In this document: positions 6,457-22,435 of the stretch, piece after piece
How the letters are laid out: the number at the start of each line of letters is the position of its first letter
Position numbering within the stretch: position 1 is the first letter of the stretch
From: Formosa sp. Hel1_33_131
Lineage (GTDB): Bacteria > Bacteroidota > Bacteroidia > Flavobacteriales > Flavobacteriaceae
Reading direction: 5' to 3'
DNA length: 32,000 nucleotides
Assembly (NCBI RefSeq): GCF_001735745.1
Contig: NZ_CP017260.1
Coordinates: 1,800,001 to 1,832,000, forward strand
The notes under the pieces: generated by a model
What the model saw: only the letters and a program-made list of their open reading frames with translations
Told to the model about the DNA's origin: nothing
The model's database searches: none
Position numbers and translations under genes: made by a program

Positions 6457-8106
6457 TTATTTAATTTTAAATATGTCTAATACACCATCAACAAAACTCA
6501 TTTCCATCTTATCAGAAGCTCCAGTTATTGTATTAGCCGTATGTCTTTTGTTTTGAATCATTTTGTATAAATCCTCATCAATTGTTCTGTTACCTAAAAA
6601 GTAAGTACACATCACATTATTAGTTTGCCCTATACGATGCGCTCTATCTTCACATTGTACACAATCGGCATAAGTCCATGGATATTCTACAAAGGCAACT
6701 CTAGATGAAGCTGTAAGTGTTATGCCAACTCCTGCAGCTTTAATATTGCAGATGATGAGTTTTGTATTAGGGTTATTTTGAAAGGCATCAATAGAAGCTT
6801 GTTTTTGGTCCTGATTATCTCTACCAGTTACAGTAACAGCATTTGGAAATTCCTTTTTTAATTCATCTACAATTGAATGAAGTACACAGAATACAATTAG
6901 TTTTTCGCCACTATCTGTAACTTCATGTATAAACTCATTTACTTCATTAAGTTTTCCAAGTGCTGAAATACGCTTTAGCGCTCCCATTTTTACCATAATC
7001 TCACCTCGTAGTTTTCTAGCAATATCTTTATCGCTACAACCTTGGCTCTTTAGATAACTTTCAAATTCATGGAATGCTTTATTGTATTCTTTGCGAGTAG
7101 TTATATCACAAAGTATAGTTTGTCTTTGCTTTTCTGGAAGGTCCTTTGCAACATCCTTTTTTTCACGTCTAAAGAAGCAATACTTATTTAGTTTGTAATT
7201 GAGTTCTTTTAGATTATCTGCTCCAGAGCCACCTTCACAATATCGAGATAGAAACCCTTTACGACCTCCAAAATTTGCATGTTGGTTCATTATGGCCAAC
7301 TGCGGAAATAAATCAATAGGCTTATTTACTACTGGTGTTCCAGTAAGCAAATACACATATTCTTTACCTTGGCAAATTCTTAATACTAATTTTGATTGTT
7401 GAGTACTTGTATCTTTACATCTATGGGATTCATCTACAATTACAGATTTGAACAAATTAATTTTATCGTTCATTTTAATATCTGTACTTTTTCTCAATTT
7501 GCCTTTTGGTGGCATAAAATCAACAAAGAACTTTTTAAGGCTTTCATAGTTTGTAATAAAAACATCAGCAACACCCATTTGATAATAGTTATGCCAACTG
7601 TTTTTGTTTTTATCATCTAAAATCATTGCCTTTTTATTACTGAACTTTTCCCACTCTCTTTGCCAATTAACCTTTGTAGAAGATGGAGCAATAACCAAAC
7701 AAGGAAAGGCATCTACACCTATGACAGTTGATAGACTAATTAATGTCTTTCCTAAGCCTTGTTCGTCACCAATTATGCAGCGTTTAAGTTTCATTGCTTG
7801 TGCAATACCATTTTCTTGATATGGTCTTAAAGTGGCTGTAATTGGCAACTTAATTTCTAATTCAGGAAGTGGTGCTATTTCTCCAACTTCTTCGGCAATA
7901 GAAGTATCTATTTTGATGAATTCAGCACGGCACATTTTAGCCAACTGTAAAACCTCAATTCTTTTATTAATTGGAACAATCCATACTTTTTTTATAGGAT
8001 CCCATCTACGGTAAGAAAGAGCCTTAACTTGGGCTAGATTTCTTTTAGCCCAGTTATTGAAAGGAATAGTTATGTGAAACTCTGTATTTCGTTCTAAAAT
8101 TTGCAT
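6457..8106 (-). CDS. SNF2-family helicase
   Basis: 'DEQGLGKT' (motif I), 'VDESHRCK' (DExH), 'LTGTPVVNK' and '[10 protein letters not shown]' (motif VI). Confidence 0.85.
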
Positions 8107-8121
8107 GAATTATCCTTTTTT

Positions 8122-8673
8122 TTAAGCTGACTTTGATGTTATTACTTCTGCTTCTACCTCATAGCCTTCGAACATGTCAACTTGATTGTCTGGAGCGTGC
8201 TTTCCATTTAGATATTCGTTCACTTCAATTTTGCATTGTTCGATAGCTTCGGATAATTCATCTATAAATGCATAATCTTCATCCCAACGTAATTTTGGAG
8301 TAGTGATATTTACAGCTTTACCAATTTTTAAGAGCTTAGTACCTGAAATTGCTACGCCTTCACTGTCTCCGTTGCCAGTAATTTTAAAGGCGTGAACATT
8401 AAATTTTTCTTTGATAGGATGCTCACTATCTCCTTCTTCAATTTCAGGAAACCCATTATCTATTACGTTTTTAACTTCCTTTTTAGTTACTTCTTCACAG
8501 ATCATTGCTAAATGAGGAATAAGGTTTTCAAAGGCAGTTTTTAAGTCTTCGTGAATTGGAGCATTGCACGACATTTTTACATTGTTTTCGCCAACGTCTG
8601 TTTTTTGAACATAGGAGTAGTCTAATGAGTAAGCTCCTTTAAGTGTTCCGGATGTAATTGTGATTGTGTTCAT
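8122..8673 (-). CDS. Hypothetical phage protein (183 aa)
   Basis: ORF in the operon with an ATG start; no recognisable motif. Confidence 0.5.
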   Translation of the reverse strand: MNTITITSGTLKGAYSLDYSYVQKTDVGENNVKMSCNAPIHEDLKTAFENLIPHLAMICEEVTKKEVKNVIDNGFPEIEEGDSEHPIKEKFNVHAFKITGNGDSEGVAISGTKLLKIGKAVNITTPKLRWDEDYAFIDELSEAIEQCKIEVNEYLNGKHAPDNQVDMFEGYEVEAEVITSKSA

Positions 8674-8676
8674 TAT

Positions 8677-9063
8677 TTATTGATTTAAATTGTTAATTCT
8701 TATTTTCTTAATTGCATTTGCATATTTTCTAGCTTCCTGTAAATGATACAAGTACTTACCTCTTACAATTCGCTCATCTTTGTTTATGAAGTCAGAAACT
8801 TGAGTGCTGCATTGATTATATTTTTCAGCAAAACATTTATCTGTTTTTAAAAGATCTTTTGTGGTTTTTACATGATGAACAATTGAGCAATGAGTTCTGT
8901 CTATTACATCTCCTATATTGCAATAGGTTTCTGATGTTAGTTTTACAGATAGGGCAGAGAATATTCTCCTAGCATCCATTACGTTTCTAACCCTAGTGGT
9001 TTTTGATAAATCTACCTTGCATGATCCTTCAACTATTTCTTTTATGCTTTCAAGAATATTCAT
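8677..9063 (-). CDS. Stand-alone DnaA C-terminal (domain IV)-like HTH protein
   Basis: 'ARRIFSALSVKLTSETYCNIGDVIDRTHCSIVHHVK' parallels the DnaA domain IV pattern (aR.iamyL.r.lt..s...IG..f.rdHsTV.ha..k). Confidence 0.5.
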   Translation of the reverse strand: MNILESIKEIVEGSCKVDLSKTTRVRNVMDARRIFSALSVKLTSETYCNIGDVIDRTHCSIVHHVKTTKDLLKTDKCFAEKYNQCSTQVSDFINKDERIVRGKYLYHLQEARKYANAIKKIRINNLNQ

Positions 9064-9314
9064 AGCCTTTCTACTTTTTCTGCTACAACATTGTTGTAAT
9101 AATTGTTATGATTGTCAATCTTAAAATCGTTATAGCAAGTAACTTTTATGTAATCACCAGGACGTAGCGTTTTTGCAGTTTCTGCTAGTTGCTTTCTAAA
9201 TTCAACACCCCATTTATTCTTTTTGTTTATGGAATCAGAAACGATAGCAACTCGCTTCTTAAAAGGCGGTTTGCTTTTATCCAATATTTGTTCTATTATT
9301 CCTATTATTTCCAT
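9060..9314 (-). CDS. Hypothetical phage protein (84 aa)
   Basis: ATGA overlap with the downstream gene; ATG start at 9314. No firm motif. Confidence 0.45.
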   Translation of the reverse strand: MEIIGIIEQILDKSKPPFKKRVAIVSDSINKKNKWGVEFRKQLAETAKTLRPGDYIKVTCYNDFKIDNHNNYYNNVVAEKVERL

Positions 9315-9324
9315 TTATTCAGTT

Positions 9325-9348
9325 TAAAAAAGCTCGTTTTTCCGAGCT
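9325..9348 (-). terminator. Rho-independent terminator inside the early operon
   Basis: The minus-strand RNA reads AGCUCG-GAAAAA-CGAGCU followed by UUUUUU. It closes the 206-nt noncoding gap 9315-9520. Confidence 0.6.
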
Positions 9349-9520
9349 GTCATTCTTTCAACACTTTTGCAGTATGAAACTTTCCTGCGCCTCTGCTTTA
9401 ATCTGCCAGCAATCCAAATAATCACTCTAATAAGCTGTTAGGGATAAATTGCTTTCGACAAGTGATGCTTCGAACTCGAAGAAATCCGAGTTTATGTCAG
9501 GCACACCCTCATTTAATATC

Positions 9521-9886
9521 TTAGAATGGTAAATCGTCTGGTACTTCGCCTTCCTCTATTTGTGCATTTTGTGGCTCAGGTTCTGAACGCCCCCATACAA
9601 TGTGATTACCTAAAATTGGCATCGCCTTTTTATCTTCCTCATTCATTTTATCAAACAACTCTTTTGGCAAACTTTGCTTAACCAAATGTGTGTCTTTGCT
9701 GTCTTCAATCTTATTATCAAAACCGAAGCCTATTAAATCTAAATACACGCCTTTTTCACTTTTAAATAAATGGTTCGATTCAATAGGAATGATTAAGCAT
9801 TCTACTTCTGAACCATCTTTACGCTTCATTGTTTTTACAATGTTTTTTAATTGTCTTAAATTGATTTTTGTTGAAATGTTACCCAT
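9521..9886 (-). CDS. Putative ssDNA-binding/replisome-associated protein with an SSB-like acidic C-terminal tip
   Basis: The 121-aa protein ends 'EEGEVPDDLPF' (compare E. coli SSB 'DDDIPF'). It sits between the recombination and replication genes. Confidence 0.4.
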   Translation of the reverse strand: MGNISTKINLRQLKNIVKTMKRKDGSEVECLIIPIESNHLFKSEKGVYLDLIGFGFDNKIEDSKDTHLVKQSLPKELFDKMNEEDKKAMPILGNHIVWGRSEPEPQNAQIEEGEVPDDLPF

Positions 9887-9905
9887 GGATTTTATTTTTA
9901 AATTA

Positions 9906-10319
9906 TTAGTAATACTGTTCTACGTTGTCTATAATGTCTTGTTTATCGAAATTGAAGTATTGTACTATGACATCAATTACTTTTGAATAGAGGTCGCTAA
10001 AATCATCTTCTGTCATACTTGCAAAACTGATGCTCTTGGCTTCTCTTTGAATTACACCTTGAAAGTCTACCCACTCATCATAAAATCCAGCCTCAATAAT
10101 TAGATCCTTACGCATACGGTCTGAATTACTGTATCGCTCCTGGTTATCAAAAAGCATATTGATTAGTGAAAAGAACTTTCTATGAAATTTTAAGTTTCTA
10201 GGTTGCTTTACCTCACATTGGTATTCTTCGCCAACTTTAAGTTTCTTGATTTTGTCATAATCAGAATTGTAGGCAACCTTTAATGTGTTATTAAGCTGTT
10301 TTACAAGGAATAGTTTCAT
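9906..10319 (-). CDS. Hypothetical phage protein (137 aa; weak DUF1367-like pattern)
   Basis: 'PRNLKFHRKFFSLINMLF' is reminiscent of DUF1367 phage proteins. ATGA overlap with the upstream gene. Confidence 0.4.
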   Translation of the reverse strand: MKLFLVKQLNNTLKVAYNSDYDKIKKLKVGEEYQCEVKQPRNLKFHRKFFSLINMLFDNQERYSNSDRMRKDLIIEAGFYDEWVDFQGVIQREAKSISFASMTEDDFSDLYSKVIDVIVQYFNFDKQDIIDNVEQYY

Positions 10320-11608
10320 ACTAAATAGGCGTTTTTCTTTTTTAGCATGACAACAAACTCAGAGATGACTGCATCTTGAAACCTTCGTGTTTCATCTCCA
10401 ACTTCATACTGCAGATGAACGTATTCCTCAATAATTGTTTCTATAACAGATTGAGTGCCTTTTGAAACACATAATTCAGATAGAATAATTTTCTTTTCCT
10501 CTAAATTTGCTAATCCTAAAACCTCTTTATTTTCAAATACAGCATAGCTAATTGGATAAGATATTGGTTCATCATAGTTACATTCTTTAAAAAAGTCTTT
10601 AGCCTTATTTAAAGTGCTAATTTGAAGTTCATTCATTGGAATTTCACGATACAACTCATTTTGATAAATCTTGAATTTAGATGCTAGATTATCATTGCTA
10701 ACTTTAGTTTTAGCTTGATTAAAGACTAAACTTGGAAGCACAGTAGTATTTCCTACTTCATCAATATTTAAAAGCCCACTTAGTCCCTTAGGGGCTATTT
10801 TTATCTCATTCAAGATTTCTATGTATTCATCTGACATTAGTTCAGAGTTCAATACAGCAAAGTCTGATGATATGCACTCTATATATTCGGAATCAGAACA
10901 ATTAAAGAGTATATTTTTAATGATTTCCTTATCTGTACATTGATAAATGACATTCCATATTTTTGATGGAACTTCCCAACCATATTTCACCAGTCTATTT
11001 TCATCAATATCAATATTGACTAGATCATAATCATAGACAGAATTTTTATTGGAATTAAAGCATTTGATGCCTCTTCTAAATAAGTTGAATCCTTCTGTAG
11101 CTTTCTCTAAAATCTTTCCATGCTTACATTCAAATAGAACTTTTCTGTTTTCGGAAAAATATTTGTCAAAGTCTCCAACAAATGATGCTATCTCCTTTCT
11201 GTTTCTGATATAAAAATGAGTTTCATCTTCAACTGGACCTATATCACTTACATATTCTAAAGATGGATGTCCTTCATCTATTGCATTACAGTATAACTCT
11301 CTTATTGCTTGCCAAAGCTTCCAATCCTTACCAAATTCAGTAGTAATGCTTGTTTTAGTGCTATTAATTGTAATTACCTCAAAATCATTATCTCTAAATT
11401 GTGCTTTTTCTGTACCAATTTCAATTTTTTCATTCCCTGCATAGATTGAAACCTCGAAACCATTTCTTAATAAAAATGCTAGAGCGTATTTATTTCCACT
11501 ACCAAACATTCCTATTTTACCGTTTAATCCTCTTTTAGTAGAAGCACCTAAAAGTGTAAGTGCTTCTACATTGATTATTCCTTTGTTAGAAATTCTTAAA
11601 TATTTCAT
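10316..11608 (-). CDS. Hypothetical phage protein (430 aa)
   Basis: Long ORF in the operon; contains 'IGMFGSGNKYALAF' and 'ELYCNAIDEG' (see rejected notes). Confidence 0.5.
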   Translation of the reverse strand: MKYLRISNKGIINVEALTLLGASTKRGLNGKIGMFGSGNKYALAFLLRNGFEVSIYAGNEKIEIGTEKAQFRDNDFEVITINSTKTSITTEFGKDWKLWQAIRELYCNAIDEGHPSLEYVSDIGPVEDETHFYIRNRKEIASFVGDFDKYFSENRKVLFECKHGKILEKATEGFNLFRRGIKCFNSNKNSVYDYDLVNIDIDENRLVKYGWEVPSKIWNVIYQCTDKEIIKNILFNCSDSEYIECISSDFAVLNSELMSDEYIEILNEIKIAPKGLSGLLNIDEVGNTTVLPSLVFNQAKTKVSNDNLASKFKIYQNELYREIPMNELQISTLNKAKDFFKECNYDEPISYPISYAVFENKEVLGLANLEEKKIILSELCVSKGTQSVIETIIEEYVHLQYEVGDETRRFQDAVISEFVVMLKKKNAYLV

Positions 11609-12051
11609 TACCTTTTTTCTTTTAGAATTACTGATGATTTTCTATATGTGATTTCAGGCAATTCAATTTCTTCGCCATCTTCTGTAGCCGTTAGTAATCC
11701 TTTTTCTTTTGATATAAAAGCTTGTTTAGATTTTTCTTCAATAGCTTTTTTTGATGCTTCGGCTTCTTGCCATTCTTTAATGTGGTTGTATTTAAAGGTT
11801 CTGCCACCATTTCTAACTTCAATCATAAAGCCCTTGTAACCATCTTTATAATCAGAAGCTTCATTAGAGATATTTTCTAGATGTTCATCTTTGAAGGACT
11901 TAACAATAGCTAATGAGTTTTCTAAATTTTTACGTTCCTTTTCTAGATAGATAAGCGCATCTAGTGTAGTTATTTCGCCTTCTTTTGCACGATGAATTGC
12001 ATTCATCATTTCATCCTGCATTTTTATATGTAATTCTGACATTGCTCCCAT
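11608..12051 (-). CDS. Hypothetical phage protein (147 aa, charged, probably coiled-coil)
   Basis: ORF in the operon; K/E-rich. Confidence 0.45.
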   Translation of the reverse strand: MGAMSELHIKMQDEMMNAIHRAKEGEITTLDALIYLEKERKNLENSLAIVKSFKDEHLENISNEASDYKDGYKGFMIEVRNGGRTFKYNHIKEWQEAEASKKAIEEKSKQAFISKEKGLLTATEDGEEIELPEITYRKSSVILKEKR

Positions 12052-12053
12052 GA

Positions 12054-12827
12054 TTATGCGTTTTGAAAGTTTAATAATTCATTAATTTTTGTTTCAACAG
12101 ATTTGCTTACTGCATAGTGTTTTCTAACATCTTGTATGCTGGATATTTTGCCTTTATTAATGGCATCAGTAACATTCAGCCACTCTTTAGTAAAGTTTTT
12201 TGCCTTATCTGTAATATTTAACCAAGACTTATCAGTTTGTGTAGAACCTTGAGTACTTGTACTTGAATTATTACTAGTAGAAGTTGAAGATGGTGTTTGG
12301 GTTTTACTTGAAGAATCAAATCTTAATCTTCCATTTTCATCCTTTGCAGTAAGTTTTATTACTTTTCCATTTTTAAATTCCGAATACCAAATCCAATCTT
12401 TAAGTTTTAAATTCCAAGTTTGTTTTGCTTTATTGCCTTCAAGTTTAAACTCATTAGAGTTTAATTTTAATTGTATTAAAGGATAGTCATAAAGCTCACG
12501 ACCAATTCCCCAACGAAACCCTGCACGTTTAAATGCATCAGATGCACGCCCTTTGGTTTTTTCAGTCATGCTTTCGGTACCAACATCTTGTCTCCAAATC
12601 CATTCATCATCAATCTTAATTCCAATAGAACAGAATAATTGACCATCAATCAACTCATATTTGTCCTGCCAATTAGGTCCACAAACTTCATCAAGTCTGT
12701 TCATATCCACTCTAGCATCTTTATAGGCTAGGATTGTAGCATAACCGCCTTTATTTATAGATTGTACACGAAAGTCTACATCTTCTATTTTTAAAGGTTC
12801 TTTTAGCTTTTCTAATAAATCTTTCAT
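12054..12827 (-). CDS. Rad52/Sak-type single-strand annealing protein
   Basis: 'ILAYKDARVDMNRLDEVCGPNWQDKY' and 'KGRASDAFKRAGFRWGIGRELY' match conserved Rad52_Rad22 blocks. S/T-rich linker and C-terminal domain follow. Confidence 0.8.
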   Translation of the reverse strand: MKDLLEKLKEPLKIEDVDFRVQSINKGGYATILAYKDARVDMNRLDEVCGPNWQDKYELIDGQLFCSIGIKIDDEWIWRQDVGTESMTEKTKGRASDAFKRAGFRWGIGRELYDYPLIQLKLNSNEFKLEGNKAKQTWNLKLKDWIWYSEFKNGKVIKLTAKDENGRLRFDSSSKTQTPSSTSTSNNSSTSTQGSTQTDKSWLNITDKAKNFTKEWLNVTDAINKGKISSIQDVRKHYAVSKSVETKINELLNFQNA

Positions 12828-12867
12828 AATTTTACATTGTTATAATTAAACTTCGGTTTAGATAATT

Positions 12868-12887
12868 GCCACTATTAGCGTAGTGGC
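12868..12887. terminator. Stem-loop between the small ORF and the annealase gene (orientation ambiguous)
   Basis: GCCACTA-ttagcg-TAGTGGC. The T-run lies on the plus-strand side and an A-run on the other, so it may block antisense read-through or act as an RNA stability element. Confidence 0.3.
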
Positions 12888-12890
12888 TTT

Positions 12891-13040
12891 TTATTTTTCT
12901 TGATAATCTTTTTTGAATTGTTTGTTTTCTTGTTTGTAACATTGAAGTCTCAACCATAAATAGCACACCAAGCCTGTTAGCGCAGATATTATCAAAGTCA
13001 CTTCTTCATTGTTATCCATAAATTCAAATAAAGCATTCAT
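12891..13040 (-). CDS. Small predicted membrane protein (49 aa), below the ORF-track cutoff
   Basis: Hand translation gives 'MNALFEFMDNNEEVTLIISALTGLVCYLWLRLQCYKQENKQFKKDYQEK'. ATGA overlap with the stop of 13037..13222; one hydrophobic helix. Confidence 0.4.
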   Translation of the reverse strand: MNALFEFMDNNEEVTLIISALTGLVCYLWLRLQCYKQENKQFKKDYQEK

Positions 13041-13222
13041 CGTTTTTTCTTTTTTAGTTTTTTTAATAGGTATTCTGTAGCTTCAGCATCCGTGATTAAT
13101 GGCTTTTTAGTTGGTGTTTCAACTTCCTCTTTAGGAACATTAACACCAAGCATTTTAAATAGCCTTGGCATTTCCTTTTTAGGTAAAGCCTGTATCACAT
13201 GATATGCTGTTTCAGCAGTCAT
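13037..13222 (-). CDS. Hypothetical phage protein (61 aa)
   Basis: ORF coupled to its neighbours by overlapping start/stop codons. Confidence 0.4.
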   Translation of the reverse strand: MTAETAYHVIQALPKKEMPRLFKMLGVNVPKEEVETPTKKPLITDAEATEYLLKKLKKKKR

Positions 13223-13509
13223 TATCCTACTTTAGATATTTTGGTGTTATAAACTTTGATTGTGCTTTTAAGTCCTTCATAGGTGCTTATTAGATCATCG
13301 CATTTTGATACGGAATGGCGAACCAACTCAACAACTGTGTCTACACTTTTTTCGCTTTTTATTGTAACACCAGCAAGTAAATCTCTAATTGTAGATTCTG
13401 ATGCCATGCCATCTTTTACTGAAATAATTGAATAATCTCTTTTTTCAAGAACATCATTCATTGCATCTCTTAAATCTTTAGGTATCGGTTCTGATATTTT
13501 AAAATTCAT
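13222..13509 (-). CDS. Hypothetical phage protein (95 aa)
   Basis: The ORF-track start at 13512 is a GTG; the adjacent ATG at 13509 is preferred. Confidence 0.45.
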   Translation of the reverse strand: MNFKISEPIPKDLRDAMNDVLEKRDYSIISVKDGMASESTIRDLLAGVTIKSEKSVDTVVELVRHSVSKCDDLISTYEGLKSTIKVYNTKISKVG

Positions 13510-13521
13510 CACTTATTGATT

Positions 13522-13797
13522 TTAGTTATTATTGAACTCGTTTATTAATGCTTCTAATCCCTTACTTTCAAATGATTTTCCAGTTAATAGGGTGTATAAA
13601 TATTGTGCTACAGATTGATGAGCATGAGCCCTTGTAGTGTTATCTGTTCTTTCAGCTTCGTTAAACCATTTATGCATTAGGTTTATTAAATCTTCGGCTG
13701 AATTGGCTTTTTCGTAATCGCTCTTTAACCAAATACCTATTAATGGCATTGCAGCGAAATAGATTGTTAAATCGGGTTTCATAAAAATTAATTTCAT
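13522..13797 (-). CDS. Hypothetical phage protein (91 aa)
   Basis: ORF in the operon with an ATG start. Confidence 0.4.
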   Translation of the reverse strand: MKLIFMKPDLTIYFAAMPLIGIWLKSDYEKANSAEDLINLMHKWFNEAERTDNTTRAHAHQSVAQYLYTLLTGKSFESKGLEALINEFNNN

Positions 13798-13860
13798 ACT
13801 TTTGTTTTTTAATTCAATTCATTGTTTTTCGTAGAATAGTGGGTTGTTTTGATTTACACC

Positions 13861-13883
13861 GCCCTCTTTTGAGGGCTTTTTTT
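13861..13883. terminator. GC-rich stem-loop directly after the first early gene
   Basis: GCCCTC-tttt-GAGGGC followed by T7 on the plus strand (A7 precedes it on the minus strand). It overlaps the stop codon of 13882..14247. Confidence 0.35.
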
Positions 13884-14247
13884 AATCCAAACTTCCACAA
13901 CCCCTAACAGCATTTGCAAAGGCTATTAATTCAGCTTCCTTTTTTACTTTAGGAGTTAATCTTAACCATGCATAGTCAAGTTCAACCTCATAGACTACAT
14001 CTCTGTTTTCTACTTTAGTTTTTAAAGTTTCTAAATCAATTCTTTGTGAAGAATGCCCCCAATCATCAGTTAAATAGGCGTAGTTTCTGTAAACAGCTCC
14101 ATTCCCTTTGTAGTTTCTAGCATGTATTTGCTCTAATTGTTCAAAGGTGTAATCCTGTACATCAGTTTGAACTGTTTTGAAAGATGAGTTGGTTTCTGTT
14201 ACTCTTAATAACTCAGTCCACTTAAATTTTACTTTGATTGTGTGCAT
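13882..14247 (-). CDS. First gene of the early leftward operon, unknown function (121 aa)
   Basis: The ORF-track start at 14301 is a TTG inside the A-rich intergenic region; the ATG at 14247 ('MHTIKVKF') is preferred. No HTH is recognisable. Confidence 0.45.
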   Translation of the reverse strand: MHTIKVKFKWTELLRVTETNSSFKTVQTDVQDYTFEQLEQIHARNYKGNGAVYRNYAYLTDDWGHSSQRIDLETLKTKVENRDVVYEVELDYAWLRLTPKVKKEAELIAFANAVRGCGSLD

Positions 14248-14373
14248 AATTTCGTAGATTTGTGTAATTGTTTTGATTTTACAATACAAAAATACATACA
14301 AAGTTTGTTTTTACAAAATAAAAACACACAAAAAACACACGTATTGATTAATTAAAACAATATTCAACTGATT
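14248..14373. promoter_or_regulatory. Divergent immunity/early promoter region
   Basis: A 126-nt A/C-rich spacer between the divergent early operon and the repressor gene. The minus strand carries a -7 box TATTTTTG (plus coordinates 14287-14294). ACA-rich repeats include ACAAAAAACACAC at 14328-14340. Confidence 0.5.
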
Positions 14374-15048
14374 ATGAAAGCTTTAGAGATTAGAAATATT
14401 AGAAAAGAGTTAGGTAAAACACAAGCTGAGTTTGCTAAATTATTAGGAGTTTCTAAAAACTCTGTTCAATTATGGGAGACAGAAAAGAGAAATCCAAGCC
14501 CTAGTATGGTTTTTTTAATAAAAGAAACATACAAAAAACACACAGAAAATTTAAAAGAAAACGAATTTGAAAATAAAAATGGAAATAAATTCACTGAACT
14601 TCCAGATGGATCTTTAATGATTCAAGTGCCATTAGTTCCATTTAATGCTTATGCATCTTTTCTAGAAGTCTATGAAGATGAATATAAAGTAAAAAGCAAA
14701 TTTGAAACAACATACTTTACAGTAGATAAAATTGGTAAAGGCAATTATATAGCGTTTACTGTAAAGAATGATAGTATGAATGGTGGAATGTTAGATGATA
14801 CTCCTTCAGGTGCACAAGTTTTAGCTAGAGAACTTGGAAAGCAACATTGGAGAGATGGCTTTAATTCAACTCAATATGGTTGGATTATAATTTGTGAAAC
14901 TGGAATCTTTCATAAAGACATTAAAGGTCCAGATGAAAAAGGGGATATAACTTGTGTTTCAAGAAACAAATCTCCAGAGTTTCCAGAATTCCCTATAAGT
15001 TTAAATGAGGTGCATTCGATTTACAAAGTAATTAAAAGAACATTTTAA
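14374..15048 (+). CDS. cI/LexA-like phage repressor (XRE HTH + S24 peptidase-like C-terminal domain)
   Basis: HTH 'LGKTQAEFAKLLGVSKNSVQLWETEKRNPS'. The C-terminal 'FTVKNDSMNGG' resembles the GDSM serine motif of S24 autopeptidases. Confidence 0.75.
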   Translation: MKALEIRNIRKELGKTQAEFAKLLGVSKNSVQLWETEKRNPSPSMVFLIKETYKKHTENLKENEFENKNGNKFTELPDGSLMIQVPLVPFNAYASFLEVYEDEYKVKSKFETTYFTVDKIGKGNYIAFTVKNDSMNGGMLDDTPSGAQVLARELGKQHWRDGFNSTQYGWIIICETGIFHKDIKGPDEKGDITCVSRNKSPEFPEFPISLNEVHSIYKVIKRTF

Positions 15049-15057
15049 TCAAATAAT

Positions 15058-15591
15058 ATGAGAAGACTAATATTGACTTTTTCATTTATAGTGTTTTGTG
15101 TTGGTTCTATTTTTTCACAAGAATTAATAAAAGAAACTGATGAATTTACAGGAAGAAGTATTGAAAGAACAAAATGGGAGAAGCTTATCTCTAAAGGACT
15201 ACAGCCTACTATTTTAAAATATAGCATTTTAAAAGAAAAGGATTCTGTTTTTTTTATTGGTAGAATTAGAGTAAATGCAGGTAAGACAGTATTTGCAATA
15301 GGCAAGGGGTTTAGAGTAATTTTTAAACTTGATAATGGAGATACTGTAGTGGTAAAGTCAAATAAGCATGTTGTATCAAGGCAAGGTGGTGCAAATGATG
15401 GTGTTTTTGGTTCAAGTATTTATGGTGCAGAAGTGACCTATGTTTTTGATAGTAATGATGATATTGAAAAATTAATAACAAATAAAGTATCTAAAGTGAG
15501 AGTTTACACAGATGAAGGTTATTTTGAAAAAAAGGTTAAGAGTAAAGCTGCTGTTGGTCTTGTTAAGAATTTAAAGTTAATAGTTAAATAA
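15058..15591 (+). CDS. Secreted protein or lipoprotein of unknown function (prophage moron candidate)
   Basis: Signal peptide 'MRRLILTFSFIVFCVGSIFSQ'. Located between the repressor gene and attR. Confidence 0.55.
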   Translation: MRRLILTFSFIVFCVGSIFSQELIKETDEFTGRSIERTKWEKLISKGLQPTILKYSILKEKDSVFFIGRIRVNAGKTVFAIGKGFRVIFKLDNGDTVVVKSNKHVVSRQGGANDGVFGSSIYGAEVTYVFDSNDDIEKLITNKVSKVRVYTDEGYFEKKVKSKAAVGLVKNLKLIVK

Positions 15592-15699
15592 TAATTAGTA
15601 CAGAAATCGGTACACGATTTTTGATTTGATGGGCTTTTTTAAAAGCGGTAATGGTTGATTTTACTGGTTTTTTGATTTTTGAAATAGCGATATTTTAAA

Positions 15700-15741
15700 C
15701 TCATAACCCGAAGGTCACTGGTTCGAGTCCAGTTCCCGCTA
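15700..15741 (+). other. attR: displaced 3' half of an initiator-type tRNA-Met(CAU) gene (fragment, not a functional tRNA)
   Basis: CTCATAA (anticodon loop), CCCGA, AGGTC, ACTGG-TTCGAGT-CCAGT (T arm), TCCCGCT-A. 'CTCATAACCCGAAGGTC' is identical to the E. coli tRNA-fMet anticodon arm as I recall it. The upstream sequence cannot form the anticodon stem, D arm or acceptor 5' strand. Confidence 0.75.
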
Positions 15742-15750
15742 CTAAATAGA

Positions 15751-15781
15751 AAGTCAAAGCTTAATTGTTTTGACTTTTTTT
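15751..15781 (+). terminator. Rho-independent terminator after the tRNA fragment (module Z)
   Basis: AAGTCAAA-gcttaattgt-TTTGACTT followed by a T-run. Confidence 0.6.
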
Positions 15782-15837
15782 GTTAAAAACACTAAGGTTT
15801 TAAAGGACGAGAAGTTTACACTGAGCGGAGTCGAAAT

Positions 15838-15904
15838 GAGTCCAGTTCCCGCTACTAAAACAATAAAACGGTTATACTTTTATAAAGTGTAGCCGTTTTT
15901 TTAT
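15838..15904 (+). repeat. att-like junction J2: second copy of the tRNA 3' end (22 bp) + core CTACTA + module X (terminator)
   Basis: GAGTCCAGTTCCCGCTACTAAA at 15838-15859 equals 15725-15746. The 53 bp at 15852-15904 is identical to 16341-16393 and contains the hairpin ACGGTTATAC/GTGTAGCCGT followed by T7. Confidence 0.8.
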
Positions 15905-15912
15905 ATTTGAGC

Positions 15913-16182
15913 ATGTCAAAAAGAATTTTTTATCCTCTTTTTTTGTTATTAATTCCTTTAATTGGAATGACTATCACTGATGAAATTAACTGGAGTCCAT
16001 TTGATTTCATTATTATGGGTTCTCTACTAATTCTCCTTAGTATTGGAATTAATTTTGCGAGTAATCGTGCAAAGAATTTAAAAAATCGAGTCCTATACAT
16101 TGGAATATTGGTTATAATATTTATGTTAATATGGGCAGAGTTGGCAGTAGGTCTTTTTGGAACTCCTTTTGCAGGTAGTTAA
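15913..16182 (+). CDS. Small integral membrane protein (89 aa, ~3 TM)
   Basis: Hydrophobic segments 'IFYPLFLLLIPLIG', 'FIIMGSLLILLSIGINF' and 'LYIGILVIIFMLIWAELAV'. The ORF-track start at 15907 is a TTG; the ATG at 15913 is preferred. Confidence 0.5.
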   Translation: MSKRIFYPLFLLLIPLIGMTITDEINWSPFDFIIMGSLLILLSIGINFASNRAKNLKNRVLYIGILVIIFMLIWAELAVGLFGTPFAGS

Positions 16183-16314
16183 GTAAACAATCGCTTCAGT
16201 TTTGCTCCAGCTTTGAATAATAGGGTGAGGGGAAATAAAAATCATATTAGTTCAACTTTTCATAATAAGAGTCATTATGTGATGAGTGTTGATTAAGTCT
16301 TTTGGAGTTAGACT

Positions 16315-16393
16315 AATGTTCGATATTTCAATAGAGTTATCTACTAAAACAATAAAACGGTTATACTTTTATAAAGTGTAGCCGTTTTTTTAT
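16315..16393 (+). repeat. att-like junction J3: module B + core CTACTA + module X
   Basis: AATGTTCGATATTTCAATAGAGTTAT-CTACTA; B recurs at 17235-17260 with 3 mismatches. The right side is the exact 53-bp copy of 15852-15904. Confidence 0.8.
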
Positions 16394-16486
16394 CAAAACA
16401 TATTTTTTGTAAATAAAACTTTACATTTTAATTTATTTTGACTACTTTTGTCAAATAAACTTTACATAAATTTAAATAAAACTAAT

Positions 16487-16600
16487 ATGGAAGCTTTGGG
16501 AATTATGGGATTTATCTTTGGATTAGCAGCGTTAGCTCAAGTACTTAAATTAAAAAAAATTGTAGAAACCTTAAAAGATGAGGTTAATGAATTAAAATAA
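16487..16600 (+). CDS. Small TM peptide (37 aa), below the ORF-track cutoff
   Basis: Hand translation gives 'MEALGIMGFIFGLAALAQVLKLKKIVETLKDEVNELK'. Its stop is 1 nt before the ATG of the next gene. Confidence 0.4.
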   Translation: MEALGIMGFIFGLAALAQVLKLKKIVETLKDEVNELK

Positions 16601-16601
16601 T

Positions 16602-16997
16602 ATGATGAAAGAAGAAAGAAAAAAAAGAACGATTCGATTAGCAATTTGGACCTGGACTTGGGTCGCCACATTGGCCGTTGCTACATTTGGACCAAAATTC
16701 ATTTGGGAAAACAGTACACTATGGACAACTTTGGCAATATGCATTAATCTTCTTAATGGAGTTTTAATGATTTTGGCAAACAGATCATTATTTAACCATT
16801 ATGATGAACTTGAACGCAAAATTCACCTTGAATCAATGGGTTTAACTCTTGGCGCAACAGTTGTAGTAGGCTTGAGTTATTCACTTTTGGATCAAACCAA
16901 CCTAATCACATCAAATGCTGAGATCAGTTACCTTATCATGTTCATGTCTGTTACCTACTTCATAACCTTGTTGATTAATAGAAAAAGATATCTATGA
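16602..16997 (+). CDS. Membrane protein (131 aa, ~4 TM) partnered with a small XRE regulator
   Basis: Four hydrophobic helices. ATGA overlap with the downstream HTH gene. Confidence 0.55.
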   Translation: MMKEERKKRTIRLAIWTWTWVATLAVATFGPKFIWENSTLWTTLAICINLLNGVLMILANRSLFNHYDELERKIHLESMGLTLGATVVVGLSYSLLDQTNLITSNAEISYLIMFMSVTYFITLLINRKRYL

Positions 16998-17194
16998 AGA
17001 ATATAGTTCGTGACCTCAGAAAACAAAGAGAACTTACGCAGGAGCAGTTGGGAGAAATAATAGGCGTTTCAAGACAAACAATAAATGCTATTGAGAAAGA
17101 GAAATTTGACCCAAGTTTACCTACTGCATTCAAAATGTCAAAATTGTTTGAAATACCTATTGAGGAATTCTTCTTTTTTGAGAGGTCTAAATAA
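16994..17194 (+). CDS. Small XRE-family HTH transcriptional regulator (66 aa)
   Basis: 'LTQEQLGEIIGVSRQTINAIEKEKFDPSLPTAFKMSKLF' is a canonical HTH_3 pattern. Confidence 0.8.
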   Translation: MKNIVRDLRKQRELTQEQLGEIIGVSRQTINAIEKEKFDPSLPTAFKMSKLFEIPIEEFFFFERSK

Positions 17195-17234
17195 TTAATT
17201 TATATAGGTCAAAAAAATTTCTTGGGATAAAACG

Positions 17235-17266
17235 AATGTTCGATATTTCAGTGGAGTTATCTACTA
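17235..17266 (+). repeat. att-like junction J4: module B + core CTACTA, followed by module Y
   Basis: AATGTTCGATATTTCAGTGGAGTTAT-CTACTA, then unique sequence carrying a terminator. Confidence 0.75.
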
Positions 17267-17270
17267 GTAA

Positions 17271-17299
17271 AACCTCTTGAGAAATCAAGAGGTTTTTTT
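17271..17299 (+). terminator. Rho-independent terminator (module Y; inferred native tRNA-downstream terminator)
   Basis: AACCTCTTGA-gaaa-TCAAGAGGTT followed by T5+. Confidence 0.7.
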
Positions 17300-17406
17300 A
17301 GGTCCAAAATTTTAGAATGTGTTTTGTCCGTTTCTTTAGAAATAATTGATTTTGCAAATGTTAGGTAAAATTTTGGGAAATGGATTATTTCTATTTTGTT
17401 GAAATC

Positions 17407-17697
17407 TCACCGTTTTTTCCAAATGGAAGGATTCCTGCTCGTGTGTAAAATTGCAATAACAACAATTTTTTCACCATAAATCTTATAGTACACACCAAAC
17501 GGAAATTTTTTAAGAAAAGCAGCTCGGATATTGCCTAATCGCTTATGGTAACCTTCGGGGACTTGCTTTATTTTGTTGTAACATTGCTCTAGTTCAGCTA
17601 AAAAAGAATCGGCAAGTTTTGGATTTAACTCATCATAATAATCGACAACTTCTTGAATATCTTGTTAGGCAAGGGGACGAGTATAAAAATTAGCCAT
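17407..17697 (-). pseudogene. parE: ParE/RelE-family toxin gene interrupted by an in-frame TAA at codon 11
   Basis: Hand translation: 'MANFYTRPLA*QDIQEVVDYYDELNPKLADSFLAELEQCYNKIKQVPEGYHKRLGNIRAAFLKKFPFGVYYKIYGEKIVVIAILHTSRNPSIWKKR'. The stop is at 17665-17667. The ATG overlaps the antitoxin stop (ATGGCTAA). Confidence 0.7.
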
Positions 17698-17911
17698 TTT
17701 TACGACGAATACTGGCTTTTAATTCTTCAAATGTGAAACCATCATCAGTCGCATTATCTGCTTCTGCTTCTCGTTCTTTTAAAACTCGGATATGTTCAGG
17801 AGAAAGTTCTGAACGCTCATTCATCAACAAAATTTCCATTTGTAATTCCTCAATATTTCTAAAATGAGTTTTAGAAAAATTTAAATCCTTATCAATAATT
17901 ATTGTTGTCAT
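17690..17911 (-). CDS. Putative antitoxin (73 aa) of the ParE-like pair
   Basis: Small acidic protein immediately upstream of, and overlapping, the toxin ORF. A -7 box TATATTTG on the minus strand (plus coordinates 17929-17936) lies 18 nt upstream of the ATG. Confidence 0.5.
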   Translation of the reverse strand: MTTIIIDKDLNFSKTHFRNIEELQMEILLMNERSELSPEHIRVLKEREAEADNATDDGFTFEELKASIRRKNG

Positions 17912-18715: not shown

Positions 18716-21700
18716 TCAACAACTCTCAACGATTGCAATTTCCGCTTCCGTTAATCCATAGAGTGCATACACCATCGCATCTATTTCTTTGTCTGTTTGG
18801 TCAATTTGTGTTTTAAGCGCCACGGCTTTTTGCTGTTCTTCTAAAAAGTAAGCTTCCAACTCTGCTTTTTTGGATAAGGACAATACCACTTTTTTCTTTT
18901 GCAGCTCCTTTAAAAAGTCTGCATAGGAGAGTGCAAACCAAGTTTCTAGTTTTTTAGAGAGCTTATCGAGGGATTCATATTCTCTGAGCAAAGTTCTTTG
19001 GAATTTTTGAGACAGCTCTTGCAAGTCTTTGTTTAGTGACAGCATTTGGTTTGTACGATCAATAATAAGGTTTGGGTTCTCTGGAATTTCGGGTAGTGGG
19101 AATGGTTTTAAGTAATTAGTTTTAAACCTGAAATAACCACCTCTTAATTCTGTTCCTGTATTTTTTAGAAAAAACCACATTACTTTAGAATTTAAAATCC
19201 CTAAATAAAACTTTTCATCTACTTTAAATTTTTTATTTTTTACAAATGAATAGATTGTAGTTGGATGATAGAATTCTCCTTTTTCATCATAAGTCATATT
19301 ACATCCTAATGAAATTTCTTGGGTCATTATTTTTGGATGAGGGAATTTCTCATGATTTTTTTGATATATATATAAATACCATCCTTTTTCAACATTCATC
19401 TTACCATTTTCTCTACCTTTTATTTCTTTTTCAAAGTGTTTAAGGTATAAATATGTTTTTGGTAAATTTGATTTTATATATTCTTCACTAATTCCAGTTC
19501 CATTTTCCCCATAAGGGAATAGTACATAATAATTGTTACTAAGCTTTTTGTATTTTGAAATTTCATTCCCTTTAATAAACGGTTTTACTAATTCTTTTTC
19601 TATTTCAAAATGATAATCATATTTAGGATTGTAGGCTTCAATAGAACTCCCTTTATCAATGCCTTCAAAAACATACACAGCATCTAAACTTGTTTGCATC
19701 CCAACAAATATTCTATAAAACACATCATTTATAGTAAATGGTTGTTGCTTTAATTTATCAATAGTATCAAATGTTTTTTGGCTTTGCAAATCCCAATTGT
19801 CCTCATTTAGATTTTCACTCAGGATATAATCCCAATCAAATGGATTATTAATCTCCATAGGTTTTATTTTTTTAAACCGTACTTTATCTTTTTCAGACTT
19901 ATCTAAATTTATAATACATGTATAAGTGGATGCATCCGTAAAAACCATTTCAGAACCAAAATGTAAGATGCTTTCAACAGCAGAATTCTCTTTAAAAAAC
20001 TGTCTTATCCCAGCACCAAAATCGGTAACCAAAAATTTATGAGGCAAAATATAAGAGACAACTCCTTTGGCATGAATTAAATCAAAACTCCTTTGCATAA
20101 AAAGCGCATAAATATCATAATTAGCAGTCGCAGATTGATATTTTTCTTCATAATAATCGCACATTTCAGGGTAATGTTTTATCAATCCCTGTTTTCTCAC
20201 ATACGGCGGATTCCCAATCACCACATCAAACCCACCAGCATATTCGGTACGGAAGGCGTGTGCTTCTGAGCAACAGAGCGCGTTAATGGTATTTTGTAAG
20301 GCTTTGGGATGCGGCGGCAATTCGTGCTTATTTCTGTTCGTCTGAATGTATTTTAGGGTATTCAATAACTGTTCCGTACTGCTAACTTCTTTTGGGGGAC
20401 TGTATTTTTGTTGCCACAACGGTTTGTTTTTCCCATCTACTTTCTCAAGGGGCTTAAGCCCCTTGTAAGGCCCCTTGTAACCCCTCTTGTGAAAATACGA
20501 AGTCCGTCCTTTTATCTTTTGCATAATCGCAGGAATCTCCTCTATAGCGCACACCAATAACAAATGGATATGGTCCCCACAAATGTTATAGGCAAGTATA
20601 TTGAGTTGGTTCTCTTTTGCAACATCCGCAATGATTTGGGTCATCTGCACATCATCTTCAGGAGTAAAATAAATCACATGAGGTTTTGTGCTTCCTTCCC
20701 GTCGTTCTCTAACTTTGTACTTCTCCATTCTTTTTGAAGTCCGACTGTCGTGGATCGTTGTTGTAATATGGTATGGTTTTTTATGTTTTTCTTTAAAAAT
20801 ACTTGGAAATTCCTCTTCCCATTTAAAAGCTTTGTCGCCCGCAACTTTGGGATCGTCAATCAAAGAATTGCCACATTTTATATTGTGATTCAGGCTGTTA
20901 AGTTTACGGTTGGGTTGCGCCGTTCGCAACCACAACGAGAGTTTGGCAATCTCTACAGATTCTTCATTCAGATCCACTCCAAATAAATTATTTTCTAGGA
21001 TGCTATTTTCTACATCACTGAGCATTAAGGTGTCATTATTGTACTTAGCAGACAGTTCATCCACATACCGATGTTCTGCAATCAGAAAATTAAGGGCTTC
21101 GTTTAGAAATGCTCCCGAGCCACAAGCAGGATCACAAATGGTCAGTTGTAACAACCACGTCCTGTAATCGTTCAGTGTTTCCAGTCGTTTTCTACTTCGT
21201 TGTTTGGCGTGTTGATAGGTCTCATCGCTAATGTCCAGCTCTATTTTTTTCTCCGTACAAAGTTTGCCTACCGTGTTTTCTACAATGTATTTGGTGATGT
21301 ATTTTGGGGTATAAAACACACCGTCTTTTTTGCGTTTGGTGGTCGTTTTATCAACCGATTGCCCTTCTAATTGGGCTTTCACTTCATCCAGTTCATTGAG
21401 GGAATTTTCAAAAATATGACCTAAAATATTGACGTCCACTTCACTTTCAAAATCATATTCTGAGAGTTTTAGAGTATGGTTGTAAAGCAACGCATCATCA
21501 ATCGTAATATTGGCTAAAATTGTATCGGGTTTAAAAAGCCCGCCGTTGTATGCAAACACATCGTATTGTTTCCCTTTAAAGCCCGTGTTTAGATACCCAA
21601 AGTATTTTTTAAAACGATCGTATAAAGGTGTGTAGGCATCTAAATCTTTTAACTTTTTCCATTGCTCTAAAATAAGTCTTACAGAATTTGGAGGCAGTAA

Positions 21701-22435
21701 ATTCCGGTCTTCAGAAAAGAATAAAAACAAAAATCGATCTAATAATTTTTGAGATTTTTTAAATAATTCTAAGGCTTCAAATTGGGGATTGAGGTGAGTT
21801 AAATTTTGAAACAACTCTCGTTTAAACAGAGAGTAATCTTTATACAACTGTTTGGTGATGTTTTCTTCTTGACTTAAAGACTCTTCTTTTAATTTTTTAG
21901 GAAGGTTGTTTTTAATATTCTCAAAAGCGATGCATACATACAAGAGTTGAAACACTTCTTCGCTAAGCGTAAACAGATTAAACTCTATATGTTCAATCGC
22001 ATTATCGATGTAAAATCGGAGTTTCTCAAAGTTAGAAGTTATGACATACACACAATCTTGCTGATTGTTTTTATACCCAAACGCTTGGGGTTCTACTTTT
22101 GCTAAATCCGTGGTGTTGGTGCCTTTGAGTTCGATAACACCCACAACGGTGCCATCAATAATAATTCCACCATCTGCTTTTTTGCTGTCTTTGGCATTTT
22201 TAAGTTCAGTGGTAAGATTGAAATTGGTTTCGGGGTTTAGGGTGTATCCAAAAATAGTGACAAACAGATCTCTTAAAAAACCTTCTTGGTACTGTTCCTC
22301 TTTAGCATTCCGAATATTTTCTTGGATTTCAGGATTAAAAAAATGGGCTTTATAAGCGATCCATTTTTCTGAAATGAGGGTCTTATTTTGAGTCTTGAGC
22401 TGTCTAGTGACAACCGTATTTTGAAATAGGGGCAT
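18716..22435 (-). CDS. Single-chain type IIG (MmeI/Eco57I-like) restriction-modification enzyme with an embedded HUH/Y1 transposase-like domain
   Basis: N-terminal PD-ExK ('ADGGIIIDG...VIELKG'). N6A methyltransferase motif I 'ICDPACGSGAFL' (aa 433-444) and motif IV 'VVIGNPPYV' (aa 738-746). TaqI_C-like specificity region ('FVGMQTSLDAVYVF', 'LRGGYFRFKTNYLKPFPLP') and C-terminal 'VYALYGLTEAEIAIVE'. The HUH insert occupies aa 551-733. Confidence 0.85.
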   Translation of the reverse strand: MPLFQNTVVTRQLKTQNKTLISEKWIAYKAHFFNPEIQENIRNAKEEQYQEGFLRDLFVTIFGYTLNPETNFNLTTELKNAKDSKKADGGIIIDGTVVGVIELKGTNTTDLAKVEPQAFGYKNNQQDCVYVITSNFEKLRFYIDNAIEHIEFNLFTLSEEVFQLLYVCIAFENIKNNLPKKLKEESLSQEENITKQLYKDYSLFKRELFQNLTHLNPQFEALELFKKSQKLLDRFLFLFFSEDRNLLPPNSVRLILEQWKKLKDLDAYTPLYDRFKKYFGYLNTGFKGKQYDVFAYNGGLFKPDTILANITIDDALLYNHTLKLSEYDFESEVDVNILGHIFENSLNELDEVKAQLEGQSVDKTTTKRKKDGVFYTPKYITKYIVENTVGKLCTEKKIELDISDETYQHAKQRSRKRLETLNDYRTWLLQLTICDPACGSGAFLNEALNFLIAEHRYVDELSAKYNNDTLMLSDVENSILENNLFGVDLNEESVEIAKLSLWLRTAQPNRKLNSLNHNIKCGNSLIDDPKVAGDKAFKWEEEFPSIFKEKHKKPYHITTTIHDSRTSKRMEKYKVRERREGSTKPHVIYFTPEDDVQMTQIIADVAKENQLNILAYNICGDHIHLLLVCAIEEIPAIMQKIKGRTSYFHKRGYKGPYKGLKPLEKVDGKNKPLWQQKYSPPKEVSSTEQLLNTLKYIQTNRNKHELPPHPKALQNTINALCCSEAHAFRTEYAGGFDVVIGNPPYVRKQGLIKHYPEMCDYYEEKYQSATANYDIYALFMQRSFDLIHAKGVVSYILPHKFLVTDFGAGIRQFFKENSAVESILHFGSEMVFTDASTYTCIINLDKSEKDKVRFKKIKPMEINNPFDWDYILSENLNEDNWDLQSQKTFDTIDKLKQQPFTINDVFYRIFVGMQTSLDAVYVFEGIDKGSSIEAYNPKYDYHFEIEKELVKPFIKGNEISKYKKLSNNYYVLFPYGENGTGISEEYIKSNLPKTYLYLKHFEKEIKGRENGKMNVEKGWYLYIYQKNHEKFPHPKIMTQEISLGCNMTYDEKGEFYHPTTIYSFVKNKKFKVDEKFYLGILNSKVMWFFLKNTGTELRGGYFRFKTNYLKPFPLPEIPENPNLIIDRTNQMLSLNKDLQELSQKFQRTLLREYESLDKLSKKLETWFALSYADFLKELQKKKVVLSLSKKAELEAYFLEEQQKAVALKTQIDQTDKEIDAMVYALYGLTEAEIAIVESC
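20237..20785 (-). other. In-frame IS200/IS605-type Y1 (HUH) transposase-like domain inside the methyltransferase core
   Basis: 'YHITTT', 'LAYNICGDHIHLLLV' (HUH = H622-I-H624, nt 20564-20572), 'IMQKIKGRTSYF', 'LWQQKY' and 'LKYIQTNRNKH' (Tyr696, nt 20348-20350) occur in the canonical order of Y1 transposases. Confidence 0.75.

Follow-up and report, generated by a model that had tools for sequence, protein, structure and literature searches.

How four junctions that share the hexamer CTACTA, and otherwise have mosaic flanks, came to stand one behind the other is the question raised by positions 15700-17302 of the DNA analysed here, a stretch of 32,000 nucleotides from Formosa sp. Hel1_33_131 (NZ_CP017260.1, positions 1,800,001 to 1,832,000; referred to as the window). 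A first-pass annotation, made from the sequence alone, took them for a record of serial integrations at the 3′ end of an initiator tRNA-Met gene (tRNA-fMet). Very probably, four units were inserted one after another, site-specifically, at the 3′ end of that gene, and the segment is the distal part of the resulting stack; two of the units, E1 and E2, are integrase-less cassettes of a widespread family, on which a recombinase would act in trans.

Direct reading of positions 15400-17600 and a repeat scan place the four junctions, J1 to J4, where that annotation had them. To the right of a prophage, the segment is made up as follows.

15700-15744, + strand: J1, attR of the prophage; CTCATAACCCGAAGGTCACTGGTTCGAGTCCAGTTCCCG and CTACTA (15739-15744), then hairpin Z.
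15745-15857, + strand: Z unit, cargo-less, 113 bp; hairpin Z at about 15748-15779, spacer, right arm, J2.
15838-15857, + strand: J2; GAGTCCAGTTCCCG (14-nt tRNA 3′ end, 15838-15851) and CTACTA (15852-15857), then X.
15858-16346, + strand: cassette E1, 489 bp; X at 15858-15904, B at about 16290-16340, core at 16341-16346.
16315-16346, + strand: J3; B (16315-16340) and CTACTA (16341-16346), then the second exact copy of X.
16347-17266, + strand: cassette E2, 920 bp; X at 16347-16393, B at about 17210-17260, core at 17261-17266.
17235-17266, + strand: J4; B (17235-17260) and CTACTA (17261-17266), then a different hairpin, Y.
17267-17302, + strand: Y, an intrinsic-terminator hairpin (z-score -4.6).

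J1 is an exact 45-nt copy of tRNA-fMet positions 32-73 and the trailer CTA, matching the 3′ 45 nt of the intact tRNA in the related contig L002 at 100 %, and it begins at base 1 of the anticodon loop, in agreement with the longer identity block first described for the prophage. J2 repeats the last 20 nt of J1, or 22 nt counting the following AA. The copy of X at J3 is exact over 53 nt, 15852-15904 being the same as 16341-16393. The B arms of J3 and J4 have two mismatches in 32 nt, rather than the three originally counted, and 81 % identity over 52 nt; the conserved left arm reaches about 50-55 nt, beyond the stretch first given. Z, X and Y are strong hairpins followed by U runs (z-scores -5.8, -6.7, and -4.6), and none of 200 shuffled sequences was as stable. 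The B arms of J3 and J4 fold no better than shuffles (z-scores -1.0 and -1.5).

By itself CTACTA is unremarkable, with 16 copies in the AT-rich window against 9.5 ± 3.4 expected, and the signal therefore lies in the long flanking repeats. The hexamer corresponds to tRNA positions 71-73 and three trailer bases, and thus spans the tRNA 3′ terminus as proposed. Its proposed role as the crossover core stands in part. CTACTA appears to be the necessary crossover region for B-type junctions only; at the 45-nt and 20-nt identity blocks it may be merely the 3′ limit of identity, and exchange at these blocks may instead occur within the anticodon loop or T loop, by analogy with Islander classes (PMC4383910).

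Occupancy of the tRNA-fMet locus

Exact-protein look-ups with the E1 and E2 proteins gave 17 contigs, with flanks 97.6-99.9 % identical where measured, and these strains show the occupancy states that serial integration predicts. In L001-L006 and L008-L013 the order is intact tRNA-CTACTA-X-E1-B-CTACTA-X-E2-B-CTACTA-Y, with the housekeeping genes GldLMN and ABC-F upstream of the tRNA. Flank identity is 99.3-99.8 % for L002, L005, and L013, those measured in this group. Neither prophage nor Z unit is present in these strains, and relative to them both are therefore insertions. Relatives whose right-hand sequence is 99.3-99.9 % identical lack the prophage segment, and where the prophage has the displaced 45-nt tRNA fragment at its right end, prophage-free relatives have an intact tRNA. 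In L014, which shows the whole tRNA, and L017, which begins within it, the order is tRNA, Z, spacer, 20-nt tRNA end, and X, and the prophage junction is absent. Homologous units of 110 and 116 nt occur in L035 and L130, the former behind the intact tRNA of a Winogradskyella genome; the right arm is conserved and ends in the 14-nt tRNA 3′ end and core. Because it is present without the phage junction, the 113-bp unit is an independent layer and not part of the prophage, which bears out the idea of a small remnant and then a prophage stacked on the tRNA side.

E1 and E2 stand apart in L007 (97.6 % in core flanks) and L157 (99.6 %), and give the single-insert junctions expected from an attP of B-core-X and an attB of tRNA-core-Y. 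The series in L007 begins with partial tRNA-CTACTA-X, E1, and B-CTACTA-Y, continues with a Fic island that has a 17-nt tRNA end, CTACTA, and another terminator (W) at its end, and closes with a second island ending in a 14-nt tRNA end and CTACTA-X, followed by E2 and B-CTACTA-Y. L157 has the same series from the E1-terminating B-CTACTA-Y onward. The E2 stretches of L007 and L157 are 99.8 % and 99.6 % identical, and are preceded by the 14-nt tRNA end and core, not by B. Furthermore, L015 has an additional B-CTACTA-X upstream of E1, and L016 a different cassette behind E1. Units are thus reshuffled whole; E1, for one, keeps its borders in no fewer than five different junction contexts (the window, L007/L157, L015, L174, and L185). 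Serial integration, as first proposed, is supported by these states.

The target is an initiator tRNA gene. ARAGORN predicts a 74-nt tRNA-Met(cat) at the corresponding position of L001-L006 and L008-L010; neither ARAGORN nor Rfam found a complete tRNA in the window. The gene of L002 (9181-9254) has GGG/CCC around the loop CTCATAA, a C1xU72 mismatch, and an A11:U24 pair. Three G:C pairs closing the anticodon stem, a 1:72 mismatch, and A11:U24 are hallmarks of bacterial initiator tRNAs. In a scan of species-representative genomes, at least 120 loci match the last 20 nt of this tRNA, and among the matches listed an identical 76 nt including CTACTA is common to many genera. Partial tRNA copies are present at many of the listed loci, with identity runs of 44-47, 54-60, 34-37, 29, and 17-24 nt, and are attR-type remnants of several element classes. 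A Y-like terminator lies directly behind the intact tRNA-fMet in Lacinutrix, Polaribacter, and Ulvibacter (L120, L082, and L054), so that the arrangement first proposed as the empty site, tRNA-core-Y, exists in other genera; Y in the window is probably the sequence that stood behind the tRNA before E2 arrived.

The mechanism proposed starts from a circular cassette carrying B-CTACTA-X, in which B (about 55 nt) joined to X would form an attP-like site. It would recombine with tRNA-CTACTA-terminator, by strand exchange within CTACTA, to give tRNA-CTACTA-X-cargo-B-CTACTA-terminator. The tRNA would remain intact, X (a 47-nt arm with an intrinsic terminator) would end its transcript, and the next unit would enter at the regenerated tRNA end, each newcomer pushing older units outward. 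The recombinase would have to act in trans, and the candidate is an integrase of about 350 aa found at the tRNA-proximal edge of several arrays. The most likely order in the window would then be E2, as the oldest, into tRNA-CTACTA-Y; E1 into the regenerated tRNA-CTACTA-X; the 113-bp cargo-less Z unit; and the prophage, through its 45-nt identity block with the tRNA.

Several other arrangements were seen at this tRNA. X lies directly behind the intact tRNA in L064 and L116. In L116 (about 1560-1680, minus-strand reading) tRNA-X is followed by other cargo and an E1-typical tail of about 65 nt, with no B-core, and in L064 (6134-6290) by 75 nt, a degenerate B-like segment, and a terminator; these units look like eroded or empty cassettes. 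In Subsaximicrobium wynnwilliamsii (L022, 892-2319) there are five tRNA-fMet 3′ fragments of 46, 29, 24, 29, and 29 nt, about 352 bp apart, forming an array of cargo-less units with the same terminator behind four of the five. An adapter-like, cargo-less unit of 172-173 nt ending ...CCCGCTACTA lies between a CTACAA-ended tRNA copy and X in L207, L229, and L258, and similar units of 105-116 nt lie behind a tRNA-fMet copy ending CTACAA in L130 and L072. A rule that CTACAA-ended tRNAs never join X directly was considered and dropped, as 0 of 5 against 17 of 143 is not significant with five contexts only. L077 was likewise set aside as a model element between two tRNA copies, its contents being housekeeping genes.

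The open reading frames (ORFs) of the units and the prophage are listed here.

1-15699: right-hand part of the prophage, with helicases, primase/helicase, Erf-like annealing protein, and helix-turn-helix (HTH) repressor (PHROG and Pfam).
14374-15048: the prophage HTH repressor.
15058-15591: 177-aa ORF of the prophage part, no assigned function.
15967-16182: E1, 71-aa membrane protein, no protein family match.
16487-16600: E2, 37-aa ORF, no family match.
16602-16997: E2, 131-aa membrane protein, no family match.
16994-17194: E2, 66-aa XRE-type HTH protein (HTH_3, E = 6.6e-17).

The left end of the prophage is beyond the window, and its integrase gene may also be outside. Exact-protein look-ups with three prophage proteins gave nothing on record, there was no related phage in INPHARED, and the 177-aa protein has no relative in IMG/VR; in two distant IMG/VR relatives of a 430-aa protein the tRNA fragment is absent. 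The HTH protein of E2 is the only one of the E1 and E2 proteins with a family match. To the right of the stack are toxin-antitoxin-like stubs, an HxlR regulator, and a type IIG restriction-modification gene. A short ORF (17407-17493, - strand), the end of which resembles a RelE/ParE-type toxin C-terminus, and a 73-aa ORF nearby (17690-17911, - strand) match no family, and may be a decayed toxin-antitoxin pair just beyond Y. In the type IIG enzyme (18716-22435, - strand; PADLOC REase_MTase_IIG, 1e-283), residues 589-698, lying between the protein halves, match an IS200-like Y1 transposase domain; relatives retain this match, with gene lengths of 1215-1494 aa across strains.

A cassette family with a shared two-arm site

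E1 and E2 are members of a larger family. The search pattern for B, GTTCGATATTTCARTRGAGTTATCTACTA (29-nt B-CTACTA), was run on metagenome contigs; it contained CTACTA, and the sites sampled are of the CTACTA-core type only. Matches were found in at least 120 marine metagenome contigs. Behind B-CTACTA there is mostly X, and otherwise one of many terminators known behind intact tRNA-fMet in other genera. At least 69 complete cassettes running from X to B were recovered (489-3874 bp, median about 900), in at least 39 cargo clusters, E1 being cluster C25 and E2 cluster C22. Among the matches listed, arrays have up to four complete cassettes between five sites, as in the following maps.

A13-X<2299>B-X<550>B-X<1039>B-X<1290>B-X
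A72-X<1722>B-X<739>B-X<664>B-X
A76-X<2066>B-X<1170>B-terminator

The cargo includes pairs of membrane protein and XRE, HxlR and enzyme, and TetR and methyltransferase, as well as lipoproteins and hydrolases. Genes lie on both strands, many cassettes pair a regulator (HxlR, XRE, or TetR) with a target gene, and each cassette starts with a terminator. The family appears to be widespread, with integron-like arrays at tRNA-fMet in many marine Flavobacteriaceae. No description of it was found in full-text literature searches, and it is apparently undescribed.

Across 165 unique B sites, conservation extends about 50-55 nt to the left of the core and, with X, about 47 nt to its right. With these 165 junctions aligned, the boundary between modules stays at CTACTA, as it had to if the first reading of the four junctions was to hold, and CTACTA precedes X in 133 of 148 unique contexts. 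Partners beside the hexamer are often non-homologous: the left-hand one may be a tRNA end or B, the right-hand one X or any of numerous terminators. A constant breakpoint despite such partners argues for conservative site-specific exchange within CTACTA, and not for homologous recombination. Cassettes also recur in different surroundings: C5 (574 bp) is 99.6-100 % identical in four junction contexts, C4, a type related to E2, is 96.9-99.4 % identical across four contexts, and the seven copies of C1 are at first, internal, and last array positions.

An integrase gene was found in none of the 69 complete cassettes (39 cargo types) among the matches listed, and neither recombinase nor replication genes in any of the 39 types. 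This would also be expected if E1, E2, and Z were dead decay remnants of integrase-bearing islands (cis-mobilizable elements, CIMEs), rearranged by RecA-dependent recombination between arms of about 50-100 bp. Remains near some arrays point the same way, namely a fragmented integrase and stubs similar to the 3′ end of an integrase gene; the shared arms and the perfect repeats (106 and 280 bp) also have the length that homologous exchange needs. However, independent decay would not be expected to leave at least 39 unrelated cargoes with the same two high-identity arms across genera, nor can homologous recombination place a partner switch exactly at CTACTA between non-homologous flanks, and the near-identity of C5 in its four contexts is a further difficulty. 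Decay is therefore an improbable account of the cassettes.

The nature of B bears on how the site would work. The suggestion that B is a diverged tRNA T-arm and acceptor end is unproven, since its alignment to the tRNA is no better than with shuffles (P = 0.52 local, 0.11 anchored). Nor is it a remnant of an integrase-gene end, there being only chance matches of 12-17 nt. The B-CTACTA-X site is about 105 nt long, highly conserved, and ends in a strong terminator, as might a repeated functional RNA or regulatory element, for instance a small RNA with its terminator, the mosaic then being incidental. Yet B-core-X has no Rfam family at the gathering threshold or even at E <= 10, and in the alifold consensus of 100 unique sites only the terminator stem is supported, with no covariation in B; an attC-like folded site or an RNA gene was rejected on these grounds. 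In addition, the two halves occur apart, joined to other partners exactly at the core. An RNA element is thus highly improbable. Having no significant fold or covariation, B fits a protein-binding DNA site, and would behave as a sequence-specific one.

The candidate recombinase

L007 has, immediately upstream of its partial tRNA, the fragments of a divergent tyrosine integrase. Full-length relatives of this protein, one of them encoded at L207 1300-2382, have 347-375 aa and PF00589 as the sole Pfam match. With 3202 homologues at E <= 1e-20 the family is abundant; 'site-specific integrase' is all that its annotation says, and its sole match among solved structures is an archaeal XerC-like protein (E = 1.4e-4). 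This integrase of about 350 aa is present in 11 B-array contigs, some with fragments, and in L082 and L091. Apart from the fragmentary cases L167 and L194, the minus-strand gene adjoins a long tRNA-fMet copy, and the copy is followed by X, by the 172-nt cargo-less unit (T2) and X, or by the native terminator. When three contexts were picked from the integrase side, each proved to adjoin a tRNA-fMet copy, with a B array following in one case (L258). The family is thus apparently specific for tRNA-fMet, and for this reason, judged by position only, it is the leading candidate for the recombinase that would serve the cassettes in trans.

Elements bearing this integrase have the appearance of islands. 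In L258 a 3.55-kb integrase unit lies between perfect direct repeats of 280 bp, and in an Ulvibacter genome a 6.9-kb element lies between perfect direct repeats of 106 bp, with DUF285 proteins downstream of the integrase. The cargo seen in such elements is limited to DUF285 proteins and type I restriction-modification genes. L258 also has, at 11370-12160, a 425-aa gene convergent with the integrase that contains a run of 75-bp tandem repeats and has no Pfam match. Nine loci with partial tRNA copies of 44-47 nt (L078, L079, L018, L109, L022, L049, L081, L038, and L134) have an integrase of a second, L078-like family, about 430 aa long, which adjoins the copy where this was checked (L078, L049, and L081).

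In L007, L161, L255, L227, L179, and L258 the order is integrase (minus strand), tRNA-like copy with core, X-cassette-B-core, and so on to the native terminator. Such an architecture raises the possibility that the arrays are a capture platform analogous to an integron, with a resident tyrosine integrase and the tRNA-fMet copy as primary site, in which case the integrase of the window array would be elsewhere or lost. The small size, diversity, and number of the cassettes, and the abundance of the integrase family, would suit a platform of this kind. Other observations do not suit it: an integrase is lacking in the neighbourhood of most arrays, those of the window species included; in L259 and L260 the integrase is present without an array, and it behaves there as the integrase of an ordinary cargo island flanked by direct repeats; and the cassettes have their own regulators and lie in both orientations. 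A resident platform is accordingly put forward only tentatively.

A stack of trans-mobilized cassettes remains the preferred reading, and the following points weigh against it. The link between the integrase and B-core-X is one of co-location only, B being without homology to the ends of the integrase elements, and most arrays are directly behind the tRNA with no integrase within 10 kb. The search for an integrase ORF was negative throughout the window, E1, E2, the Z unit, and 15.6 kb of the prophage included; the prophage, with the same identity length as the loci of the 430-aa family, has none at its right end (15592-15699). The intact tRNA 5′ half and the prophage attL, expected to the left, lie beyond the window, as the prophage integrase may. 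Neither a circular cassette nor a free attP was observed in the sequences examined, and the B pattern had zero matches in IMG/VR viral contigs. Finally, homologous recombination may add to the reshuffling, since it could use the 280-bp repeats and the arms in common (about 50-100 bp).

Relation to known systems

Integrase-less, att-bounded units that accrete in tandem at the 3′ end of a target gene are known as CIMEs, for example with ICESt1 and ICESt3 of Streptococcus thermophilus (PMC5704250). E1 and E2 resemble them in being core-bounded and in encoding only small membrane proteins and an HTH protein, with no genes for integration or transfer, and the stack as a whole resembles CIME accretion in that such units are combined with integrase-bearing elements, enter at a regenerated target, and leave readable mosaic att junctions. 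CIMEs, however, are described as decay products of particular integrative and conjugative or integrative and mobilizable elements, with few per site (PMC5704250), whereas here at least 39 cargo types share a two-arm site, the units are of 0.5-4 kb, arrays reach four complete cassettes with five sites, and B does not duplicate the target gene. Among the listed cassettes, in IMG/VR, and at the ends of integrase elements, there was no autonomous element whose attP is B-CTACTA-X.

Islander uses the displaced 3′ tRNA fragment as the mark of an island end, and reports 125 tandem arrays with at least two members and four with at least three (PMC4383910). In terms of the sublocation classes (Williams, 2002, as cited in PMC4383910), the 45-nt block is of class A, with its start in the anticodon loop, and the 20-nt block has its start in the T loop. 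In contrast, B-type exchange would take place in the trailer and the last tRNA bases, on the 3′ side of all three subsites listed. Islander also needs an integrase and a tDNA fragment for each array member and would not call B-bounded cassettes; because of this requirement, island finders would miss them.

As in integrons, a primary site is followed by small, diverse cassettes that each end in a site of about 100 nt, the same cassette is found at varied positions, and some contigs have a divergently placed tyrosine recombinase at the array head. The differences are that the site is conserved in sequence and not in fold, that the anchor is a tRNA gene, and that the integrase is usually absent from the locus. 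Integron cassettes are mostly promoterless, co-oriented, and driven from Pc, whereas those described here bring regulators and terminators with them and are found in either orientation. There was no IntI beside attI and no structure-conserved attC, and the cassettes are neither promoterless nor co-oriented.

The additive flexible islands at tRNA genes of marine Alteromonas (PMC4898812) and the tRNA-integrating tycheposons of Prochlorococcus (bioRxiv 10.1101/2020.12.28.424599) are likewise marine, and share with this locus the use of tRNA hot spots (including tRNA-Met), strain-variable cassettes, near-identical cassettes across species, and partial tRNA repeats. Their units are integrase-carrying or ascribed to 'illegitimate' insertion, and no conserved, non-tRNA, attP-like site shared by integrase-less cassettes is reported for them; tycheposons have a tyrosine recombinase and a replication module in the element, neither of which is carried by the cassettes. 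The stack is an instance of tandem accretion and of additive tRNA islands, and differs in its two-arm non-tRNA site shared by many cargoes, its small and numerous units, and the integron-like layout of some contigs.

Tandem tRNA islands are well known; arrays of integrase-less cassettes with one conserved non-tRNA site are not. For annotation, the junctions of the window give a readable order of four insertions and precise borders for the prophage and the cassettes. With the crossover defined to 6 bp and candidate recombinases known, the system is directly testable. A bolder proposal, for which the case is at present less than even, is that marine Flavobacteriaceae hold an independently arisen, integron-like cassette system anchored at tRNA-fMet, in which a dedicated, tRNA-fMet-specific tyrosine integrase acting in trans would capture and shuffle cassettes at B-CTACTA-X sites of about 105 nt, and each cassette would bring a terminator that keeps the tRNA gene functional. 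If true, this would be a second, independently evolved cassette-array architecture besides integrons, and if the cassettes are actively exchanged, they would be a compact route of gene flow among abundant marine Flavobacteriaceae.

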